The notes below the pieces were generated by a model, which had not been told where the DNA came from, did not search any database, and saw only the letters and a program-made list of their open reading frames with translations. Below are positions 1,005 through 62,789 of a DNA stretch of 64,000 nucleotides, one piece after another (position 1 is the stretch's first letter; every line of letters begins with the position of its first letter). The stretch lies in assembly GCA_034434835.1 (NCBI GenBank), contig DAOTXX010000019.1:21361-85360 (forward strand). The letters run 5' to 3'. Position numbers and translations under genes: made by a program. Source of the stretch: Thermoflexales bacterium. Its GTDB lineage: Bacteria; Chloroflexota; Anaerolineae; Fen-1058.

Positions 1005-1037
1005 GAGGCCGGCTTGATCCGGCCTCTGGTTTTTTTG
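1005..1037 (+). terminator. Rho-independent terminator-like hairpin (GAGGCCGG-cttgat-CCGGCCTC followed by TGGTTTTTTT)
   Basis: A perfect 8-bp GC stem plus a T-run lies directly after the stop of the first CDS. Confidence 0.5.
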
Positions 1038-1076
1038 GAGGGTATCTCCCATACAGCGTGGGTAAATCCCTACAAC

Positions 1077-1333
1077 CTGTCATTGTGAGAATCCCATACC
1101 CGTCGGCGGGCATGTTTAACGACAGAAACTGCTCGCGCCTGTGTGAGCGCGCTAAAAGCTGGCTTCAGCCAGCGCTGCTATGTAGACCGGCGATTCATCG
1201 CCGGTTGTACCTGCGGAAGGACGAGCGCAAGTTTCTGAGTAGCCGCCGAAGGCAGCGGCGCTGTGTTCTGCACGCAATCTCGTTTTTGCAATATGGAGAT
1301 TGCTTCGGGCGCTACGCGCCCTCGCAATGACAG
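1077..1333. repeat. MITE-like structured intergenic element bounded by imperfect inverted repeats CTGTCATTGTGAG ... CTCGCAATGACAG; interior is a string of perfect hairpins
   Basis: Terminal inverted repeats sit at about 1079-1091 and 1320-1332. Internal hairpins include GCTGGCttcaGCCAGC, ACCGGCGattcatCGCCGGT, GCAATCTCgtttttgcaatatgGAGATTGC and GGGCGCtacGCGCCC. The modules GAGATTGCTTCG and CTCGCAATGACAG are shared with the element at 6232-6380. Confidence 0.35.
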
Positions 1334-1452
1334 TGCCATCCACGTCAAGTGGAAAATACTCTTTTTTGATCGAGAATTGATCGCCATCATAGACGCGCAA
1401 CGCCAGACTGCTCCATCATCTGTGATATAATCCAATCAAAATTGGAGAGACG

Positions 1453-2251: not shown

Positions 2252-3460
2252 ATGCAACAGATGAATTTATTCTCCGCACCCGAACCCATGACCGTCAGCG
2301 ACCTCACGCGGTACATCCGCGAGATGTTTGAGGTGGACTATCGCCTGCAAGACGTGTGGGTCGAAGGCGAGGTCTCTGGCCTCACCCGCCATACCTCGGG
2401 CCACATTTACTTTACGCTCAAAGACGCCTCGGCGCAGATCGCGTGCGTGATGTGGAAGAATGTGGCGTGGACGTTTGGCGATCTGCTTTCGCATGGCGGT
2501 CAGATCGTAGCGCACGGCAAGGTGAGCGTCTATGAGACGCGCGGGCAGTACCAACTCTATGTGGACCGCGTCCAGCCCAAAGGCCTGGGCGACCTGCACG
2601 CGCAGTTCGAGCTGCTCAAGGCCAAACTCCAGGCCGAGGGGCTTTTTGCGCCAGAGCGCAAGCGGCCCCTGCCAGAATTCCCCCATCGCATCGGACTGGT
2701 CACCTCGCCCACTGGCGCGGTCATCCGCGACATTTGCAACATCCTCTCGCGGCGCTGGCCGCTGGTTGAGGTGTTGCTGGCGCCGACCCAAGTCCAGGGC
2801 GACGACGCACCGCCACAAATCGTCGCCGCGCTCGATACGCTGTATCGCCGGGATGATCTCGATCTGATCATCGTCGCGCGTGGAGGTGGCTCGCTAGAAG
2901 ATTTGTGGGCGTTCAACGACGAGCGTGTGGCGCGCCAGATCGCCCAATCGCCGGTACCGGTGGTGAGCGGCGTGGGCCACGAGGTAGATTTCACCATCGC
3001 CGATTTCGTCGCCGACCTGCGCGCCCCCACGCCTTCCGCCGCAGCCGAACTGGTCACCCCCGACCGTATGGAACTGAAGGCCCAAGTGGACGTGCTGCGC
3101 TCCAAATTGGTCTCGGCTATCCAGGACGATCTGCGCGACCGGCGCGCGGCCGTTCAATCCCAGGCGCGCGCCTTGGCTCATCTTTCGCCCCAGCAGCAGC
3201 TTGCCAACTTGCGCCAGCGTGCGGATGACCTGATCTCCCAAGCCACCTCGTCGGTCGCGCATCTGTTGCAACTGCGCCGCGCCCGCCTGACCGGCGCTCT
3301 GGCGCGGCTGGACGCGCTCAATCCACTGGCCGTCTTGCAGCGCGGCTATGCCGTCGTCCGGCGTGAAGGCCAACTGGTGCACAGCGTCTCCCAGGTGTCG
3401 CCCGGCGATCGGCTGTCCGTTCACGTCTCGGACGGAGATTTTGAGGCGACGGTGTCGTGA
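2252..3460 (+). CDS. xseA: Exodeoxyribonuclease VII large subunit
   Basis: An OB-fold N-terminus is followed by the XseA catalytic region (402 aa). The xseB gene follows immediately. Confidence 0.88.
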   Translation: MQQMNLFSAPEPMTVSDLTRYIREMFEVDYRLQDVWVEGEVSGLTRHTSGHIYFTLKDASAQIACVMWKNVAWTFGDLLSHGGQIVAHGKVSVYETRGQYQLYVDRVQPKGLGDLHAQFELLKAKLQAEGLFAPERKRPLPEFPHRIGLVTSPTGAVIRDICNILSRRWPLVEVLLAPTQVQGDDAPPQIVAALDTLYRRDDLDLIIVARGGGSLEDLWAFNDERVARQIAQSPVPVVSGVGHEVDFTIADFVADLRAPTPSAAAELVTPDRMELKAQVDVLRSKLVSAIQDDLRDRRAAVQSQARALAHLSPQQQLANLRQRADDLISQATSSVAHLLQLRRARLTGALARLDALNPLAVLQRGYAVVRREGQLVHSVSQVSPGDRLSVHVSDGDFEATVS

Positions 3461-4197: not shown

Positions 4198-4320
4198 AGC
4201 GCGCTTTCTGCAACAAGCCTGGGCAGCGAAACCGGTTGACTGATCATCAAGAGGCAAGGTATAATGGCTTGCATCAGGCTGAGGAGAACTGGGTATCACG
4301 AGTATCGGTTTGGAGGAGAG

Positions 4321-6084
4321 ATGACAACAGATAATGATCTCGTCGTTCGCATTGGCGGCGACAGCGCAGCGGGCGGCATCGTCACCACAGGTGAGGTGTT
4401 CGCCCGTATTGCTGCATACGTTGGACTGGAAATTTACACCACCCGCACCATCCCCGCGGAAATCAAGGGCGGTCACGTCATGTTCCAGGTGCGCGCCGCC
4501 GATCATCCGGTCCACAGTCAGGGCGATGAGTTGGATTTGCTCGTGGCATATGACCAGGAATCATACGATCGCTATTTCAAGCTGCTCAAGCCAGGCGGTA
4601 TCTTTGTATACAACAGCAATGACCTGACCCTGCCCCTCAGCAGCCAAGCCAGAATATACGGCATTCCACTCAACGAACTCGCACGCCAGATTGATTTCAC
4701 GCGCGGGCGCAACATCATTCTGATCGGCGCGCTGGTCAAGCTGTTCGACTTGCCGTACGACCGCGCGGTCCAAGTCGTCCACAAGCAGCTGGGGCGCAAA
4801 AAAGAAATGCTGGAGCAGAACCTCACCGCGCTCCAGGCCGGCTACCGCTGGGTCGAGGAAAACATTGGACTGGAATCGCCCTTTCATCTGCGCGGCAGGC
4901 CGCGCGAAAATGATGAGCGGTTGATCATCTCGGGCAATCAGGCCCTCGCCATCGGCGCGATCGCCGCCGGCTGTCGCTTTTATGCGGGCTACCCGATCAC
5001 GCCCGCGTCGGACATTATGGAGTTCCTGGCCGCCGAGTTCCCCAAGATCGGCGGGACGATGATCCAGGCCGAAGACGAGATCGCTGCGATCGGTATGGCG
5101 CTGGGCGCGTCGTTCACAGGCGCGCGTGCGATGACCGCGACGAGCGGCCCGGGCCTCGCGCTCATGGTCGAGATGATCGGCCACGCCTCGATGACCGAGA
5201 CGCCCGTCGTCATCGTGGACGTTCAACGCGCCGGGCCTTCGACTGGGATGCCGACCAAAGTCAGCCAGGGCGATTTGCGGCTGGCCGTCTTTGGCGGCAA
5301 CGACGACGCGCCGCGTTTTGTCGTCGCGCCGGTCAGTGTGGAGGACTGCTTTTATCAGATCGTCAACGCGTTCAATCTGGCCGAGAAATACCAGACGCCG
5401 GTGCTGTTCCTTTCCGACCAGGACATGAGCGTGCGCGTGCAGACGATCCCGCCGTTCGACCTTTCAAAGGTGAAGCACGAGCCGCGCCTGCTGTGGAACC
5501 CGCACGGCGATGGACCAAGTCAATACGAAAGGTACCAGGACACCCCCAGCGGCGTCAGCCCGATGAGCGTACCAGGCATGTCCGGCGGTCAATACACCGC
5601 CGAGGGCCTGGAGCATTATGCGTCTGGCGCGCCGGGCTATGACCCCGAATTGCACCGCACTAACATGGACAAGCGTTATCGCAAGCTCGAAAGCGCCCTG
5701 CCCGACATCGAAGCCTGGGGCATGTATGAGCAGTTCGGCGACGACGAGGCCGCGCTGGGCATCATCGGCTGGGGCAGCACGATCGGCCCGGTGCGCGAGG
5801 CGGTGGCGCGCGCCAAGGAAAACGGGATCCCGGTCGCCGTGTTCTACCCCAAGGCGCTGTTCCCCTTGCCGGATGCCAGGCTCAAGGCGTTCCTGGAAAA
5901 GCGGCAGGCTGTCATCGTGCCGGAGATGAATTACACCGGCCAGTTCGCGGGGATGCTCCGCGCTCGCGCGCAAAGCTATGGCATCGAGCGGCCGATCGTC
6001 AAGCTGAACCAGTATGGCGGCGTGCCGCTCTCGACGCGCGAGGTTTACGAGCAGATCGTGGCGGTTCACGAGACGCTCGAGTGA
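4321..6084 (+). CDS. korA: 2-oxoacid:ferredoxin oxidoreductase, alpha (fused alpha/gamma-type) subunit
   Basis: Start is trimmed to the ATG at 4321, which is preceded by a GGAGGAGAG RBS. The protein shows pyruvate/2-oxoglutarate:Fd oxidoreductase domain I/III similarity, and the TPP-binding beta subunit follows. Confidence 0.82.
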   Translation: MTTDNDLVVRIGGDSAAGGIVTTGEVFARIAAYVGLEIYTTRTIPAEIKGGHVMFQVRAADHPVHSQGDELDLLVAYDQESYDRYFKLLKPGGIFVYNSNDLTLPLSSQARIYGIPLNELARQIDFTRGRNIILIGALVKLFDLPYDRAVQVVHKQLGRKKEMLEQNLTALQAGYRWVEENIGLESPFHLRGRPRENDERLIISGNQALAIGAIAAGCRFYAGYPITPASDIMEFLAAEFPKIGGTMIQAEDEIAAIGMALGASFTGARAMTATSGPGLALMVEMIGHASMTETPVVIVDVQRAGPSTGMPTKVSQGDLRLAVFGGNDDAPRFVVAPVSVEDCFYQIVNAFNLAEKYQTPVLFLSDQDMSVRVQTIPPFDLSKVKHEPRLLWNPHGDGPSQYERYQDTPSGVSPMSVPGMSGGQYTAEGLEHYASGAPGYDPELHRTNMDKRYRKLESALPDIEAWGMYEQFGDDEAALGIIGWGSTIGPVREAVARAKENGIPVAVFYPKALFPLPDARLKAFLEKRQAVIVPEMNYTGQFAGMLRARAQSYGIERPIVKLNQYGGVPLSTREVYEQIVAVHETLE

Positions 6085-6231
6085 TTCGTGTTGCGTGTTC
6101 CGTGTTATACCCAACGCGGGCACAAATTGCGCTTTTCTCCTGTCAACGAATATTGAACGAATAAACGAATAGGCCCGCTGGCCGCGCTCAGTATACGTTT
6201 CCAACGCAAACGGACGGAATACGCAATACGA

Positions 6232-6380
6232 AAGTAACTACTCAGCCGTCATTGCGAGGAGGCCCGCGAAGCGGGCCGACGAAGCCATCTCACAGCAATC
6301 GGAGTACAGAGATTGCTTCGTCTGCCTTCGGCAGGCTCGCAATGACAGCCTGTGCGGTAGACTGGGCTGAGTAGTTACAT
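6232..6380. repeat. Nested-palindrome element related to 1077-1333 (TIR-like GTCATTGCGAGG / CCTCGCAATGAC; internal GGCCCGCGAAGCGGGCC hairpin; GAGATTGCTTCG module)
   Basis: The outer pair is GTAACTACTCAGCCGTCATTGCGAGG ... CCTCGCAATGACAGCC..GGCTGAGTAGTTAC. Perfect internal hairpins are present. The whole element lies in the korA-korB intergenic region. Confidence 0.4.
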
Positions 6381-6439
6381 ACGAAATACGTTTGTAGGTG
6401 ATGGGGTAAGATTGAGTCAGAGGTTTACAGGAGGAATAA

Positions 6440-7306
6440 ATGAGCACCGTGACGATTGAAGCCGCGCCGGTCAAATACACGGCGGCGGATTACAAGAGCG
6501 AGGTCAAACCGATCTGGTGCCCCGGCTGCGGGGATTTTGGGGTGCTTTCAGCGTTCTACAAGGCGCTGGCCGATCTGAACATGGACCCGGCCAACGCGGT
6601 GATCGTTTCGGGCATCGGTTGTTCAGGACGCTTTCCGGCGTTCGTCGAGGCGTATGGCTTTCACGGTGTGCATGGCCGCGCCTTGCCGCTGGCGACCGGC
6701 GTCAAGATGGCGCGGCCCGAGTTGACCGTCGTGACGGTGAGCGGCGATGGCGATGCGTTCTCCATCGGTGCAGGACACCTCCCGCACGCGGCGCGCCGCA
6801 ACGTGGACCTGTGTTACATCGTGATGGATAACGAGATTTACGGTCTGACCAAAGGGCAGCCTTCGCCCACCAGCCCACACGGCATGGAAAAGAAAGCCTC
6901 GCCTTACGGCAGCCCCGATACGCCGATCAATCCGATCTTGATGGCGATTGCGTATGGGGCGACGTTTGTCGCGCGCGGCTTTTCGTCCAAGCCCAAAGAA
7001 GTGACCGAGCTGATCAAGCGAGGGATCCTCCACAAAGGCTTTGCTCTCATCCAGGTCTACAGCCCGTGCGTCACGTTCAACGATACCTTTGATCACTTTC
7101 GCCAGGTCACCGCGCCCCTGCCGGCCGACCACGACCCGACCAACAGGATGATGGCGATAGAGCGCGCGATGTCGCTTGACCCACTGTACCTGGGCGTCTT
7201 TTACACCGAAGAGCGTCCCACCTACGATCAACAAATGGCCCAACTGCGCGAAAAAGCAGGGGGAGAATTCTCGTTAGAGAAGCTGATCGAAAAATACCGC
7301 ACGTAA
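6440..7306 (+). CDS. korB: 2-oxoacid:ferredoxin oxidoreductase, beta (TPP-binding) subunit
   Basis: The N-terminus carries CPGCGDFG near the N-terminus, and the GDG TPP motif is present (VSGDGDAFSIG). The RBS is GGAGGAATAA. Confidence 0.85.
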   Translation: MSTVTIEAAPVKYTAADYKSEVKPIWCPGCGDFGVLSAFYKALADLNMDPANAVIVSGIGCSGRFPAFVEAYGFHGVHGRALPLATGVKMARPELTVVTVSGDGDAFSIGAGHLPHAARRNVDLCYIVMDNEIYGLTKGQPSPTSPHGMEKKASPYGSPDTPINPILMAIAYGATFVARGFSSKPKEVTELIKRGILHKGFALIQVYSPCVTFNDTFDHFRQVTAPLPADHDPTNRMMAIERAMSLDPLYLGVFYTEERPTYDQQMAQLREKAGGEFSLEKLIEKYRT

Positions 7307-38968: not shown

Positions 38969-40078
38969 ATGAGCCAGTGTCGAGTTCTCATCGTCTCTGA
39001 TCATCCTCTGTTTGCCGAAGGCGTTGGACGGCTGCTGGGCAACCAGGCCGGGCTGAAGGTCGTCGGCGTGCTTTCGGCCGAAGAGGCAGTCGTCAACATT
39101 CTCAGCCACAGCCCCGATGTCGTCATCGTGGATACCGACCGCGCGAATCAGACGATGCTGTTGCGGATGCTGCGCGAAAATCCGGGCACCAAGTTCATCG
39201 GCCTGTCGCTCGACAACAACGACATCAACCTGTACTACCAGCGCAGCAAAAAGACGACCGGCGTCGAGGCGCTGGTCGAGGCGATCCGGGAGCCGCTCGA
39301 ATGGAAGCCGCCCGAGCCTCGGCTGCGTCTGCTCGTCGTGACGCAAGACGCCTACGGCCAACGCATCGCCGATAACATCCGGCACTCGGCGCCGGAGCAT
39401 TGGATCGTCCAACAGTGGGTCGTCCCGCCAGCGCTCTTGAGCGCGCCCGATCCGCGCGAGCTGCTGCCGTCCACGCTGCCGTCCTTTGAGCTGATCCTGA
39501 GTCTGGGGCAGTCGCCGGTCGTTGCGCAACTGCTGCCCGACATCGCGTGCATGACCAACGCTAAAGGCATCATTGCGCCGATTGATGACGAACGCTGGTT
39601 GCCCTCTGACCTGAGAGCCGCCCTGGGCACCAGGTTGGAGCAAATGGGGGTGCCGTGTGTGTTCCCCAAACCGTTCTGCACTCTGACCGAAACACGGTAT
39701 AATGCAACCGAACACGAAATTGGCTTTACCGACGGCCCCATCCGCGAGTTTGCCAGCTTCTTTGGCCGACCCGCTTTGAAAATCTCGATTGACGCTCAGA
39801 CGCGCGCGCTCCGGGTGGAGGTGTCCCGCGATGGTCCCTGTGGCTGCGCGCGATACCTGGCCGAACAGCTTGCCGGCGTGCCCGCCAGCGAATTTGAGCA
39901 GCGCGCCCGCCCGGTGCAGCAGCGTTTTCCCTGTTTAGCCAGCGAGATACCCGATAGTGAGTATGGCGTGCCGCTGCTCCAGATCGCCGATCAGGTTTTA
40001 CAGGACGCAGTTTTTCACTCACCCGAACTGCACGCAACGTTACCGATTTTTCTGCAATCGGCTGGGCAGGTCATGTAA
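38969..40078 (+). CDS. Response-regulator receiver domain fused to an uncharacterised Cys-containing C-terminal domain
   Basis: The receiver domain reads RVLIVSDHP...DVVIVDTD...KFIGLS. The ~240-aa C-terminal domain carries CVFPKPFC and CGC motifs. No DNA-binding domain is present. Confidence 0.55.
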   Translation: MSQCRVLIVSDHPLFAEGVGRLLGNQAGLKVVGVLSAEEAVVNILSHSPDVVIVDTDRANQTMLLRMLRENPGTKFIGLSLDNNDINLYYQRSKKTTGVEALVEAIREPLEWKPPEPRLRLLVVTQDAYGQRIADNIRHSAPEHWIVQQWVVPPALLSAPDPRELLPSTLPSFELILSLGQSPVVAQLLPDIACMTNAKGIIAPIDDERWLPSDLRAALGTRLEQMGVPCVFPKPFCTLTETRYNATEHEIGFTDGPIREFASFFGRPALKISIDAQTRALRVEVSRDGPCGCARYLAEQLAGVPASEFEQRARPVQQRFPCLASEIPDSEYGVPLLQIADQVLQDAVFHSPELHATLPIFLQSAGQVM

Positions 40079-40158
40079 GGGTACACTATCTTTGTCATTA
40101 TGGTCTTACCATGTTCCATCCAACCCATCAGAGCCAAAGTCATTCAATGATCGTAACT

Positions 40159-40228
40159 ACTTGGCCAAGCCTCCCGCAGGTTGCTGCGGCGAGCCATTTC
40201 ACATTCAGGCCGTAAAATCGGCTAAACC
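40159..40228. repeat. Perfect 14-bp inverted repeat GCCTCCCGCAGGTT ...(42 nt)... AACCTGCGGGAGGC upstream of the large protease gene
   Basis: The 13-mer core also occurs at 25898-25912 and 38808-38820. Confidence 0.5.
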
Positions 40229-40315
40229 TGCGGGAGGCTGAGCAGTTGCCAATGCTCTTGGTCGCTCATTCTATCTGCGACGGGGTATCGTTCGACAACG
40301 AAAGGAGGACTGGAG

Positions 40316-43300
40316 ATGAGACGCGCATTCAGTCTCGCCATCGTCGCAATGTTCATTGCAGGCCTAGTGATCTCGGCCTGTGGGCCGGGAGCCACCCCTG
40401 GCAAGACTTTGCAAGGTGACAACACAGTGAAGATAAAACTGGCAGAGCCGGTGCGCTTTAACGAGCCGGTTGCGGTCACTATTACGGTGCAGGTAGAAAA
40501 GGAATTTCCTGAATTCGAGATATACCTACTCACACACGACTCTGATGCCATCATAGAAGGCGAAAGAAAATGGACAATCCATGCTTACGCGCACCAACCC
40601 GTCTCGGTGACCAGCAGCGTCAGGTTCACAAGGGAAGGGGACTTTGAAGTGATGGCCCAAACGCACGATCCCACCTTAGGGGGGTGGGTACTGGCGGGGC
40701 ATCAATACGTTCGCATCACCCGTGCAGGCGGGACGGTGAATCCGCCGCCAGATAGGTTGCCTGGCACACCGGGCGGGCTGATCAGGGTTACGCCTTTGTC
40801 ATCTATACCAACACCACTTGCTCCTCCCACGCCGCCCGATAAACCAACACCCAGTCCACCCTCGACCCCACAAGTCATGGTCGTCAATGCCAACCCGGCT
40901 CTTAACCTTCCCATCCCGGATAATGGCGCGTGGGTGACTTGTACCATTCCTATTACTGCTGCCCTACCTGGGGCTACGGTTATCGGCGTGAGCGTCAGGT
41001 TTGACATCACCCACCCACGCGCCCAAGACCTGGTTATGGAACTCGTTGGCCCCGATAAGACGACCGTGTATCGTGTGTGGGATCGCAAGACGCCCACTCG
41101 CGACGATTTTGAGTGGAGCATACGCAAAACGCCGCTCCCAGAAACAACGCCAGGTCCACTGATACCAAGCGCCAGCCAACTTGCCGTCTTTAACGGGCAA
41201 CCTGTCAACGGCAACTGGACACTGCGCGTTCGGGATGAAGCTCCGGGCGAAGCTGGAACCTGGTTAAACGCTTCCCTGGTAGTAAACTATCTGCGCCCTA
41301 CATCAGGCCAGGTTGTTCCCCCTCATCTGTTAGCTGGTAAGAGCCTGATGGGCGCTCAAGCCGCTGCCCAGGGCGACTGGCAGATCATCACCACTGAGGA
41401 CTTTGAGGGCGAGTGGCCTGTATTCTCGCCAGGCTGGTATGTGCGCGATCTGAACTGGGACGGCTACGAGCGTTATTGGGACGATGATGACTATCTGGCG
41501 CACAGTGGCGCCTGGGCAGCTTGGCCTGCCAGAGGCGGCGCTGATGGCCTGGACCCACAGTATTTTTACTACCCCAACAACATGGACACGAGGATGATTT
41601 ACGGCCCTTTTGATCTGAGTGACGCCGTCATGGCCGACACGGATTTTTATTTGTGGCGGGAAATAGAGGCTTACGATTACCTGGTGTTTGAGGTCTCGCA
41701 TGACGGTGCCACTTTTGAACCAAAGGTCTACTGGTCCGGTTCCTCTGGTTGGGAATTCCAAGATGTGTATTACAACAACTATGTGGGTGATAACACGGTG
41801 TGGATAGCTTGGCGTTTTTACAGCAACTCAAGCGGCTTTGACGATGGGCCGTTCGTGGATGATATTCGCATCTGGAAAAAGACGGCCGGTGATGTGACAG
41901 CCAGCGGTTATTTCTACTACTATGACCGCGACGACAATCTCGTGCCGGCCAAGTTCACCCGTGTTCGCCTCTATGATGCCGCCGTGGGGGGCGGCGGCTA
42001 CGAACTAGGCGCGACGACGACAGACGCTAGCGGCCGCTGGACGATTGGCCCAATCCTCAATCAGGACGAACCGGGTCAATTCACCCTCGATCTGTATGCT
42101 GTTGTTGAATTAGATGTGAATGACAGCTTATCGTCACGCCGGAGAGTGACCGACTTTGGAGATCAAACCTACCGCTGGTATACTCAGACTTTCTATGATG
42201 TGCCAGACGGAACGGTGGATTTTGGGGGATTAGCGATTTCCAATGGTGACGTTCAAGAGGCAGCGATGTGGATTTTCCAGGATATGCGTCGAGGTTGGGA
42301 GCACACTCGACACAACCCCGACACCGATCCCGGTTCATCCACTGCTCGATGGGAGAGAAACAAAGATTCATTAGCGCCATGCGCAAACGAGTGCTTTTGG
42401 CCTTTTCCTCCTGTGAACGGAATGTTCATACCCGACGTACGCAAATCGTCCGCTGATATCGTGGTTCACGAACTTGGACATCAGTATATGTACAATGCTA
42501 GCGGGCTGTGGGTAGACCTCTCCTGCCTCGGTCCTCACCAATTGTTTGAAAGAAGGGGCCAGTTGTGCGCCTGGGCTGAAGGGTGGGCTGATTTCCTTTC
42601 ATTGGCGGTGAACGTTGACCCATGCTACGACTGGGGCATGGGCCCTTGCGGCGCGAGAGGTGGAGCCTTTGAAAACCTTGAAATTCCTACTTGGCCAGTT
42701 CCACCCGATCAACGCCCGACAGGTGATGCCGTTGAAGGCCGTGTGGCGGGTGCATTGTACGATCTCTTTGATAGCGCCGATGATGGATATGACCAGACGA
42801 ATTTTGGCTTTACACCTATATGGAACATCGTGCATACTGCGCCAGCCGAATATAGCCTTGCCGACTTTTGGAACAGGTGGAAAGCCAACGGGAACCCCAA
42901 ACATCGCGCCGTGCAAGCCATCTATCAGAACACTATTGACTACGACACAGCGCCGATCATTGCCAACCTGCCGGACTGTATCGTGCTTCAGAACTTGACC
43001 TGGAATGATGCAATTGACCTCTGGCAGTATTCTTTCGACCCAGAAAGCTTTGACTGGGAATTGACCTGGCAGATCGTCAATACGACAGATCCGCGATGCG
43101 GCGCAGGTGTTGACACTTTGGGCAACATAGACCTTGCGCCCCAACCCGGTTGGTTGGGGTCGTGTGATGTGACCGTTCGCGTCTGCGACGGCATCAAGAC
43201 CGGCGACGACACGTTTACAGTGAATGTAGTGCTGGTGAGAGGGAGAGCCTATTTGCCCCTCATCCTGAAGAATGGCGGCGCGCAAGCCCAAAGCACCCAA

Positions 43301-43432
43301 CCTGGCCGCACCTCGTTCATCTCGCCGCTGGCGACGCTGCAAGCCCAACCATCGCCATTCAGGTCGCCATTGCCTACGCCTACACAGTCCAGTTCGTTTG
43401 TTTCACCGTTGCCCACGCCAGCGAGCCCATAA
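40316..43432 (+). CDS. Secreted lipoprotein: large zinc metalloprotease (HExxH) with proprotein-convertase P-domain and Pro/Ser/Thr-rich C-terminal tail
   Basis: The lipobox is LVISAC. The P-domain reads CTIPITAALPGATVIGVSVRFDITHPRAQDLVMELVGPD...NGNWTLRVRDEAPGEAGTW. HELGHQYMYN is the HExxH motif. The C-terminus carries AYLPLILKNG followed by an SPLPTP repeat tail. Confidence 0.75.
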   Translation: MRRAFSLAIVAMFIAGLVISACGPGATPGKTLQGDNTVKIKLAEPVRFNEPVAVTITVQVEKEFPEFEIYLLTHDSDAIIEGERKWTIHAYAHQPVSVTSSVRFTREGDFEVMAQTHDPTLGGWVLAGHQYVRITRAGGTVNPPPDRLPGTPGGLIRVTPLSSIPTPLAPPTPPDKPTPSPPSTPQVMVVNANPALNLPIPDNGAWVTCTIPITAALPGATVIGVSVRFDITHPRAQDLVMELVGPDKTTVYRVWDRKTPTRDDFEWSIRKTPLPETTPGPLIPSASQLAVFNGQPVNGNWTLRVRDEAPGEAGTWLNASLVVNYLRPTSGQVVPPHLLAGKSLMGAQAAAQGDWQIITTEDFEGEWPVFSPGWYVRDLNWDGYERYWDDDDYLAHSGAWAAWPARGGADGLDPQYFYYPNNMDTRMIYGPFDLSDAVMADTDFYLWREIEAYDYLVFEVSHDGATFEPKVYWSGSSGWEFQDVYYNNYVGDNTVWIAWRFYSNSSGFDDGPFVDDIRIWKKTAGDVTASGYFYYYDRDDNLVPAKFTRVRLYDAAVGGGGYELGATTTDASGRWTIGPILNQDEPGQFTLDLYAVVELDVNDSLSSRRRVTDFGDQTYRWYTQTFYDVPDGTVDFGGLAISNGDVQEAAMWIFQDMRRGWEHTRHNPDTDPGSSTARWERNKDSLAPCANECFWPFPPVNGMFIPDVRKSSADIVVHELGHQYMYNASGLWVDLSCLGPHQLFERRGQLCAWAEGWADFLSLAVNVDPCYDWGMGPCGARGGAFENLEIPTWPVPPDQRPTGDAVEGRVAGALYDLFDSADDGYDQTNFGFTPIWNIVHTAPAEYSLADFWNRWKANGNPKHRAVQAIYQNTIDYDTAPIIANLPDCIVLQNLTWNDAIDLWQYSFDPESFDWELTWQIVNTTDPRCGAGVDTLGNIDLAPQPGWLGSCDVTVRVCDGIKTGDDTFTVNVVLVRGRAYLPLILKNGGAQAQSTQPGRTSFISPLATLQAQPSPFRSPLPTPTQSSSFVSPLPTPASP

Positions 43433-62562: not shown

Positions 62563-62589
62563 TGGCTGATTTTTGATTGCTGGTAACTA

Positions 62590-62655
62590 TTCAGGCTCTT
62601 TGCCACGAATTACACGAATTGCACGAACTTGAATCTTTTCGTGGTCATTCGTGAA
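62590..62655. repeat. Heptamer-periodic repeat (CACGAAT words + inverted TTCGTGGTCATTCGTGAAAC)
   Basis: The sequence reads CCACGAATTACACGAATTGCACGAACTTGAATCTTTTCGTGGTCATTCGTGAAAC. Confidence 0.5.
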
Positions 62656-62789
62656 ACCTGTCCTCGCGCAGGCGGGGATTCGTGGCTGAAAACCGAATAA
62701 GCTGAACAGCTACGATTTCTGATTGTAGATGGCTGGAGCGGCTGTTCAATCAGCCATCAGCCACCTGCAATCCGCCATTGGAGACTGCC

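Follow-up and report, generated by a model that had tools for sequence, protein, structure and literature searches.

The miniature inverted-repeat transposable elements (MITEs) known as Correia or NEMIS elements in Neisseria, like those known as ERIC and RUP, are each confined to one genus or family, with interiors derived from a parent insertion sequence (IS). Repetitive extragenic palindromes (REPs) associated with a REP-associated tyrosine transposase (RAYT) are reportedly arranged as an inverted pair around a short spacer, an architecture referred to as a REPIN or bacterial interspersed mosaic element (BIME) (Bertels and Rainey 2011; Nunvar et al. 2010). REPINs carry a GTAG head, flank a single-copy RAYT gene, are lineage-specific and vertically inherited, and produce no target duplication. 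For the REP/BIME sequences of Escherichia coli, host roles acting through mRNA or as DNA sites have earlier been proposed. A further type, the CGTC-tagged REP, was defined by Di Nocera, De Gregorio and Rocco (2013, BMC Genomics 14:522; PMC3733652) and includes dRS3 of Neisseria as well as RPE-4 and RPE-6 of Rickettsia. These repeats have an unpaired CGTC or TGTC head, an uninterrupted 8-9 bp stem that starts with A-T, a 4-5 nt loop and a 3-nt unpaired tail (CCA consensus), and they have no dedicated transposase; head-to-head dimers predominate, tail-to-tail and head-to-tail pairs are rare, and the repeats lie between co-directional or convergent open reading frames (ORFs), with some inside ORFs (PMC3733652). 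In this report we describe two repeat-bearing loci in a 64,000-nucleotide stretch of the genome of a Thermoflexales bacterium (Chloroflexota, Anaerolineae), hereafter the window, of which copy 1 lies upstream of surE and copy 2 in the korA-korB spacer.

Each of the two loci is, in our judgment, likely to be the insertion of a non-autonomous DNA transposon of the cut-and-paste type, or MITE, in this Anaerolineae genome. They share a REP-like palindromic core that recurs, largely on its own, in many other bacterial phyla and in phage contigs. The combination of terminal inverted repeats (TIRs), a target-site duplication (TSD) with a fixed length of 8 bp, empty sites in relatives and many copies leads us to propose cut-and-paste movement by a DDE-type enzyme acting in trans.

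The elements upstream of surE and between korA and korB

Copy 2 displays features by which a MITE is recognized, namely TIRs at its ends, a TSD of fixed length, an empty site, and a small, non-coding and multi-copy body. An earlier reading made from the sequence alone (the sequence-only reading) had described an additional outer inverted repeat at this locus, and GTAACTACTCAGCC and GGCTGAGTAGTTAC are indeed present at 6234-6247 and 6365-6378 (Table 1). It had also proposed a check for TSDs, which revealed the octamer ATACGAAA on both sides of copy 2 and the pair TTTTTTTG and CTTTTTTG, identical at 7 of 8 positions, beside copy 1. The corresponding spacer in a relative with a 94% identical KorB (L375; L-numbers designate the comparison loci fetched for the analysis, 2.9 Mb in total) reads ...ACGGAATACGCAATACGAAGTAGTTTG..., that is, ACGGAATACGCA-ATACGAAG-TAGTTTG, with one 8-mer and no element. 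The korA-korB spacers of five further relatives (L122, L123, L124, L127, L128; 84-92% identical), which measure 65-94 nt, are likewise without it, and no core unit was found in ~55 kb of relatives' loci. Three independent assemblies of the same organism (L372, L373, L374) stop inside the element just upstream of korB, which is the expected behavior of a multi-copy repeat. A JGI contig with an identical KorB (L371 2560-2720) contains a MITE with the same right flank, together with a different left half and a different left flank on the Lon protease side; this represents either an assembly chimera at the repeat or recombination between two copies.

For copy 1, alignment of the surE upstream region with L122 and L123 was uninformative, and it was a closer relative, L376 (SurE 93% identical), that resolved the insertion. 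This genome reads GGTTTTTTTGATCGAGAAT, in which GGTTTTTTTG is joined directly to ATCGAGAATCGG without the 323-bp block. Its alignment with the window runs to GGTTTTTTTG (ending at 1037) and picks up again at ATCGAGAAT (1369), and a block of ~323 bp (1038-1360) has therefore been inserted in the window. The insertion landed in the T-tract of the upstream gene's intrinsic terminator.

The inverted-repeat arms that first drew attention to the two loci are present in both, CTGTCATTGTGAG (1077-1089) and CTCGCAATGACAG (1321-1333) in copy 1 and GCCGTCATTGCGAG (6245-6258) and CTCGCAATGACAGC (6336-6349) in copy 2, so that each copy has the form GTCATTG(C/T)GAG...CTCGCAATGAC around common inner modules. 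The exact 11-mer GTCATTGYGAG occurs four times in the 64 kb, each time at one of these arms, and shuffled sequence yields ~3 matches only when one mismatch is permitted. The inner modules also recur as described, with GAGATTGCTTCG at 1296 and 6309 and GCAATC and GC hairpins common to both copies. What could not be upheld is the assignment of the GTCATTGCGAG arms as TIRs; these arms are internal, and belong to two palindromic REP-like units facing each other head to head. The true termini of copy 2 are the outer repeats GTAACTACTCAGCC and GGCTGAGTAGTTAC, with ATACGAAA immediately beyond them, and copy 1 extends well past the 1077-1333 given for it by the sequence-only reading. A covariance model of this REP-like core unit (R1), run on the window, identified exactly three full units (33-49 bits) and an isolated left box at 1079, with no score above 12 bits in the rest of the window.

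Further members of the family were recovered from metagenomes. Two Anaerolineales loci in other genomes end in ...CTCGCAATGACAGCCTGAATAGTTAC, resembling the outer repeat of copy 2, and a metagenome scan with the pattern GTAACTAYTCAG-N1-25-GTCATTGCGAG matched at least 120 loci. The sister elements so obtained are 111-380 nt long, run from GTAACTAYTCAG to CTGARTAGTTAC, and have direct repeats at their flanks. Among the metagenome matches listed, a perfect 8-bp duplication accompanies 58 of the 82 complete elements, and 64 of the 82 show one with at most two mismatches; a shifted control gave none (0/82) at that same tolerance. The TIR consensus GTAACTRYTCAGCC was taken from the non-selected end of 72 elements delimited by the duplication alone. 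Three elements with such TIRs stand in the window, namely copy 2 and those at 40153-40249 and 62583-62713. The former of the additional two lies between the co-directional ORFs 38969-40078 and 40316-43432, and the latter lies between convergent ORFs and has an interior of repeated CACGAAT motifs with no canonical core. When the bare 14-mer TIR was used to scan viral sequences, only single matches were returned, at about chance level.

The two element sizes noted by the sequence-only reading correspond to two real subfamilies, since the long-module frame of copy 1 recurs in other loci. This frame, GTCATTGYGAG - H1 - ACAGAAAC - [insert] - GTTTCTGAGTAG - ... - GCAATC, also occurs directly after GTCATTGCGAG in L318 (twice), L363, L120 and L351; one of the L318 copies has intact GTAAC-type TIRs, and the H1 hairpin shows compensatory changes between long-module copies. 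In three of them (L318 325-533, L363 3961-4212 and, on the minus strand, L120) the insert is a complete nested head-to-head dimer, and such dimers between ACAGAAAC and GTTTCTGAGTAG suggest that the repeat inserts into hairpin apices. By comparison with the GTAAC-type ends, GTAAATCCCTACAACC in the left arm of copy 1 is possibly a decayed version of the same terminus.

Pfam annotation agrees with the gene context proposed from sequence. A Big_1/DUF11 surface protein ends at 980 and is followed by surE (1453-2229) and xseA (2252-3460), while a fused alpha/gamma 2-oxoacid:ferredoxin oxidoreductase (POR) subunit (4264-6084) and the beta subunit (6440-7306) enclose copy 2; ORFs over both elements have no Pfam match. 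The same surE is carried by the NCBI metagenome-assembled genome (MAG) GCA_964419895.1. Copy 1 does occupy the region upstream of surE, as had been stated, but it lies between the upstream terminator and the -10 box and thus is probably untranscribed; it is neither in the surE leader nor clearly transcribed. The hairpin of copy 2 stands 61 nt before the korB start codon, in a spacer that measures 65-119 nt in other genomes, and is almost certainly co-transcribed with korA-korB.

Another dispersed repeat, ~110 nt long and unrelated to the first, is found in the korA-korB spacer at ~6093-6200, and a ~90% identical copy of it lies on the opposite strand ~11 kb upstream in the same genome (L001 ~40-230). 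In L125 5680-6219 (KorB 84% identical) the same spacer contains a PhdYeFM antitoxin gene and a small ORF, called as a toxin-antitoxin pair. Because of this gene pair and the second repeat in the window, the spacer looks like a tolerated and recurrent landing site for mobile DNA.

Table 1. Positions of the elements, their parts and adjoining signals in the window.
Feature	Position	Strand	Remarks
Intrinsic terminator of upstream surface-protein gene	1002-1029, + T7 (to 1036)		11-bp stem; strong
Left flanking direct repeat TTTTTTTG, candidate TSD	1030-1037		On terminator T-tract; 7/8 match to 1361-1368
Copy 1, whole insertion (~323 bp)	1038-1360		Absent from closest relative L376
Left outer arm of copy 1, includes GTAAATCCCTACAACC	1038-1076	+	Imperfect inverted repeat with 1334-1360
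5' box of left unit, GTCATTGTGAG	1079-1089	+	R1 weak match
Extra long module at variable-hairpin position of left unit	1090-1273	+	~185 nt, structured
Parts of long module	H1 1095-1114; long-range stem 1122-1130 / 1230-1237; AGTAG 1238-1242		Hairpin H1; long-range stem; AGTAG; inner hairpins
3' box remnant of left unit, GCAATCTC	1274-1281	+	CGAA missing
Right REP-like unit of copy 1, GAGATTGCTTCG-[GGCGC TAC GCGCC]-CTCGCAATGAC	1296-1331	-	Intact; R1 48.6 bits, E = 8.5e-10
Right outer arm of copy 1	1334-1360	-	Pairwise alignment with left arm
Right flanking direct repeat CTTTTTTG	1361-1368
Extended -10-like TGTGATATAAT ahead of surE	1418-1431		Conserved in relatives L123 and L376
Left TSD copy ATACGAAA	6226-6233		Identical to 6379-6386
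Copy 2, complete 145-bp MITE	6234-6378		14-bp TIRs and 8-bp TSD; empty site in L375
Left TIR GTAACTACTCAGCC	6234-6247	+	Perfect 14/14 match with right TIR
Left REP-like unit of copy 2, GTCATTGCGAG-GA[GGCCCGC GAA GCGGGCC]GA-CGAAGCCATCTC	6248-6291	+	R1 33.5 bits, E = 5e-6
Central loop between copy 2 units	6292-6308		Spacer variable in sequence and length across family
Right REP-like unit of copy 2, inverted, GAGATTGCTTCG-TC[TGCC TTCG GGCA]GG-CTCGCAATGAC on + strand	6309-6346	-	R1 39.1 bits
Right TIR (GGCTGAGTAGTTAC on + strand)	6365-6378	-
Right TSD copy ATACGAAA	6379-6386		L375 has one ATACGAAG at the site
Third MITE, 97 nt, GTAACTACTTGGCC / GGCTGAGCAGTTGC	40153-40249		Flanks CAATGATC / CAATGCTC; without GTCATTGCGAG core
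Fourth element, 131 nt, GTAACTATTCAGGC / AGCTGAACAGCTAC	62583-62713		Flanks GATTGCTG / GATTTCTG; different interior

The palindromic core in bacteria and phages

The unit shared by the two copies is a palindrome of 28-45 nt with the form YGTC-ATTGC-GA-G[variable hairpin]C-GAA-GCAAT-CTC, the simplest version of which is the 28-mer GTCATTGCGAGCGAAGCGAAGCAATCTC; two such units in the canonical head-to-head arrangement make up window positions 6248-6346. When 185,579 species-representative genomes were scanned with the pattern GAGATTGCTTCG-N3-30-CTCGCAATGAC, at least 120 stretches matched, and the counts of units (252-260) and elements (154) that follow are among the matches listed. The core is present in at least 120 genome loci belonging to more than 20 phyla, including Chloroflexota, Bacteroidota, Patescibacteria, Planctomycetota, Omnitrophota, Gamma- and Alphaproteobacteria, Desulfobacterota, Myxococcota, Campylobacterota, Bacillota (Sporomusa, Oscillospiraceae), Atribacterota, Elusimicrobiota, Gemmatimonadota, Armatimonadota, Zixibacteria, Latescibacterota, Margulisbacteria and others. 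By our own arithmetic, 23 fixed bases would be expected to give less than one match by chance.

Each box position is 91-100% conserved over 252 units, a count that took in partner units outside the selection made by the search pattern. The basal ATTGC:GCAAT stem is near-invariant, with a few compensatory variants (ACTGC/GCAGT, ATCGC/GCGAT), and its A4:T and T5:A positions each form a pair in 247 of 260 units. GTC is preceded by T in 129 of 259 units, by C in 93, by G in 19 and by A in 18, which makes a pyrimidine in 222 (86%), and the tail is CTC in 218 units, CCC in 17, and CCA in Novosphingobium. The variable part, 0 to more than 60 nt in length, forms a GC-rich hairpin in which a GNA loop or GA...GA base is common. 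This hairpin covaries: double changes are seen at all six pairs (6/6), with a score of 0.155 against 0.050 for shuffled data and no score as high in 500 shuffles.

Structure of this kind raises the question of whether the shared core is a structured non-coding RNA (ncRNA), which the sequence-only reading had offered as its alternative to a non-autonomous mobile element; such an RNA would be a leader, riboswitch or small RNA that regulates surE and korB. The predicted folds of the two regions are very stable (-120.4 kcal/mol, z = -4.7 against shuffles for copy 1; -82.7 kcal/mol, z = -9.2 for copy 2), and both the covariation and the likely co-transcription of copy 2 would suit such a role. In the covariance search against Rfam, however, only a tRNA in the window reached the gathering score and nothing relevant appeared in either region even at E <= 10, while the same spacers are empty in relatives whose proteins are 84-94% identical. 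Conservation sits in the stem sequences and not in loops or junctions, the singletons show no orientation bias (15 sense, 8 antisense), and G:T and A:C mismatches are about as frequent as each other (12 vs 10), with no asymmetry. The genes neighboring the core over at least 120 loci are mutually unrelated, and copy 1 probably falls outside any transcript. Since Rfam offers no match, neither strand is favored and orthologous sites do not conserve the element, a riboswitch or other ncRNA is not supported, and we regard it as very improbable, while the mobile half of the earlier proposal is borne out by empty sites, flanking duplications and multiple copies. Interpretations of the internal loop, made by eye, as a K-turn, loop-E or hammerhead motif were discarded for misfit to the consensus and lack of an Rfam match.

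Regarding arrangement, 74 of the 154 elements are head-to-head dimers with units 10-60 nt apart, 62 are singletons and 6 are tail-to-tail, with few head-to-tail pairs or arrays. In Chloroflexus and Caldatribacterium, among others (L005 1283-1873, L042, L054, L079, L107), units are repeated in tandem, head to tail, every 46-51 nt, and a single inverted unit sometimes closes the array. Flanking genes are co-directional at 67 sites, convergent at 20 and divergent at 9. Single units also stand inside long ORF calls, for instance within the type I restriction specificity subunit HsdS of L083 (2604-2635) and in L012, L019 and L048; these may be in-frame intragenic copies like the Rickettsia RPEs or artefacts of crude ORF calling.

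The preference for positions after genes or between co-directional ones is an argument that host use retains the elements, either as hairpins that stabilize or process mRNA or as DNA-level sites of the gyrase or IHF type, with mobility secondary. Di Nocera et al. argue likewise for the CGTC-tagged REPs (PMC3733652), and copy 2 sits inside an operon, the classic BIME position, where it may plausibly influence how the mRNA is processed or how stable it is. Against this, the insertions are recent and lineage-specific, the korA-korB spacer has the appearance of a tolerated landing zone, and selection against promoter disruption explains the avoidance of divergent regions equally well. Moreover, the hairpins, that of copy 2 included, have no T-run after them and are therefore not intrinsic terminators. 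Retention by host use thus seems to us unlikely to be the primary explanation.

The core extends to phages, being present in at least 120 IMG/VR contigs, several of which encode portal and major-head proteins; these phage-borne copies offer a vehicle for transfer between lineages. In L144, L165, L182, L192 and L200, several units lie between structural genes, and one unit of L144 (4707-4740) is inside the portal ORF as called. The GenBank plasmid and phage collections returned two weak plasmid matches, one of them in Novosphingobium, and no phage match. A full-text literature search with the repeat strings and their translations returned unrelated primer matches or nothing.

Proposed mobilization of the elements and its implications

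Under the MITE interpretation, copy 2 inserted into the korA-korB spacer and duplicated the 8-bp target ATACGAAA, and copy 1, a longer relative, inserted in the terminator T-tract that precedes the surE promoter. The outer GTAACTRYTCAGCC ends would be recognized in trans by a DDE transposase whose gene lies elsewhere in the genome, with the core serving as a passenger or fold-back module whose long hairpin might bring the ends together. Outside MITEs, the core would propagate by a second route, as proposed for CGTC-type REPs. Any influence on surE or korAB expression would be a side effect, in the case of copy 2 through a -83 kcal/mol hairpin in the bicistronic mRNA.

An IS66-family transposase is our best guess for the driving enzyme, suggested by the GTAA ends and the 8-bp duplication, and we hold it tentatively, at somewhat less than an even chance. 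IS66 elements have inverted repeats of 20-30 bp starting with GTAAGCG and produce 8-bp direct repeats (PMC11946415), and inverted repeats reading GTAAGCGTCCGG... and GTAACCGTCCGGGCA are on record (PMC12888890); the present elements share the GTAA start of the ends and the length of the duplication. Plasmid pO157 has no annotated IS66 transposase. Two loci provide alternatives. On a Patescibacteria contig (L016 556-1838), two head-to-head dimers precisely enclose an ORF for a Mutator/IS256-like transposase, which has different inverted repeats of its own (GGTAATTAGTACCCTAATGGTTGA) and ends GGTAATTAGTACCC, and may represent a composite element or an IS with the repeat as its target. In a Chloroflexota MAG (L060 4674-4812 and 6697-6848), head-to-head dimers reside in a different MITE with the same core, with GGCTC... 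ends (GGCTCAATTAGAATCTAGGGGG...) and 8-bp duplications TTGTTTGT and TTTTTTTA. Apart from the L016 transposase, the genes between neighboring elements are ordinary housekeeping genes (GT2, AzlC, DapB, MFS, HsdS).

Several observations weigh against the MITE interpretation or limit its reach. The duplication beside copy 1 is weaker evidence than that of copy 2 because it is located in a T-run, and the outer arms of copy 1 match at only ~16 of 22 positions (~73% complementary), with no other copies of these arms among the fetched loci. Searches of the window and the 2.9 Mb of fetched loci for TIR pairs 0.6-5 kb apart, for unpaired TIRs followed by ORFs, and for GTAA...TTAC pairs flanked by a perfect 8-bp TSD revealed no autonomous element with GTAACTRYTCAGCC at its ends, and the assignment to a transposase family is therefore a guess. 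At 14 bp, the TIR GTAACTRYTCAGCC is also shorter than the inverted repeats of IS66, and it diverges from the IS66 start GTAAGCG after the fifth base. In the cross-phylum set, the core mostly stands alone, without TIRs or duplications: an outer inverted repeat accompanies 14 of 70 cross-phylum dimers (control 3.7), and an 8-bp direct repeat flanks 12 of 69 (control 4.4). It follows that MITE packaging is a Chloroflexota-specific overlay and that the core must also spread otherwise, and the MITE model leaves the near-invariance of the internal core across phyla unaccounted for.

A rival interpretation is movement of the window elements as REP/REPIN-type repeats, transferred as single-stranded hairpins by a RAYT-like HUH tyrosine transposase that makes no target duplication, with the outer repeats incidental. 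The architecture of the core, two imperfect palindromes head to head with singletons and tandem arrays besides, is REPIN- or BIME-like; the core avoids divergent intergenic regions, and most cross-phylum dimers have no TSD. Head, stem base and tail are also held in common with the CGTC-tagged REPs (Di Nocera et al. 2013). Yet clean 8-bp duplications lie just outside conserved TIRs in both copies of the window and in 58 of 82 sister elements, a DDE signature and not that of an HUH enzyme, and the head here is YGTC, the GTAG of RAYT-associated REPs being absent. A tblastn search for RAYT found nothing adjoining the units, in a weak test with an E. coli query, and the genes between neighboring elements are of the housekeeping kind noted above; the published CGTC REPs are likewise without an associated transposase (PMC3733652). 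We accordingly judge this explanation of the window elements improbable. One weak tblastn match 2.6 kb from a unit in L051 was considered as a RAYT candidate and judged unrelated.

A more speculative possibility, which we rate as doubtful but not negligible, is that the near-invariant 23-nt signature (GTCATTGCGAG ... CGAAGCAATCTC, with its GA/GAA internal loop) is the recognition site of a widespread trans-acting protein. The partner could be a transposase acting on single-stranded DNA or a factor of host or phage origin. If this is true, the core would be a selfish hairpin that propagates across bacteria by a mechanism of its own, nesting into hairpin apices, forming tandem arrays and travelling in phage genomes, and its hitch-hiking inside DDE-type MITEs, as in both window elements, would be only secondary.

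For the genome at hand, the MITE interpretation accounts for the unusual length of two intergenic regions by recent transposon insertion and flags a dense, active MITE family. With at least three copies in 64 kb, this family breaks assemblies built from short reads and may be the cause of a rearrangement or chimera at korB. More broadly, the elements represent a new MITE family with a new class of REP-like repeat as cargo. The CGTC-type REP repeats are thereby extended by a class with a two-tier stem that spans more than 20 phyla as well as phage contigs, and carriage inside TSD-forming MITEs supplies one concrete route by which it spreads. The surprising part is that this cargo is near-invariant across bacterial phyla and phages and has no known mobilizing enzyme; its 23 invariant bases provide a sharply defined sequence with which to seek a trans-acting factor. 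Many spurious "hypothetical proteins" probably arise from translation of the unit, and recognizing it would aid annotation.

Comparison with described repeat families

The CGTC-tagged REPs are the closest match to the core, which shares with them a YGTC head, A-T/T-A first pairs, a 3-nt tail, the predominance of head-to-head dimers, co-directional or convergent placement, and the lack of an adjacent transposase. It differs in having a 5-bp stem, a GA/GAA internal loop and a second, variable stem that may even hold nested elements, in a tail that is CTC rather than CCA in most phyla, in a wider distribution that takes in many more phyla as well as phage contigs, and in its presence inside TSD-forming MITEs in Chloroflexota. 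The exact core consensus does not occur in the text or supplements of Di Nocera et al. 2013 (PMC3733652). The CGTC-3 peptide VIAGLDPAIH would back-translate to GTCATTGCC...GGCAATCCA, and on that basis CGTC-3 would share GTCATTGC...GCAATC with the core. Since the traits of CGTC-tagged REPs are all seen here except the uninterrupted stem and loop, we treat the core as a new, allied class outside the four published families.

The likeness to REPINs lies in the inverted units, in a hairpin of ~100 nt with an alternative fold into two small ones, in singleton remnants and in intergenic location. In contrast to REPINs, the core lacks a GTAG head, is near-identical across phyla and, in the window copies, is associated with a target duplication; a flanking RAYT was not found either, in what was a weak test. 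The core is thus not a RAYT-type REPIN.

With Correia/NEMIS, ERIC and RUP, the elements described here have in common that they are short, non-coding, bounded by TIRs, flanked by TSDs, multi-copy, intergenic, often co-transcribed, and able to form long hairpins. Unlike those families, whose interiors trace to a parent IS, the present elements have an interior that also exists independently in unrelated phyla, as well as in the different MITE of L060.

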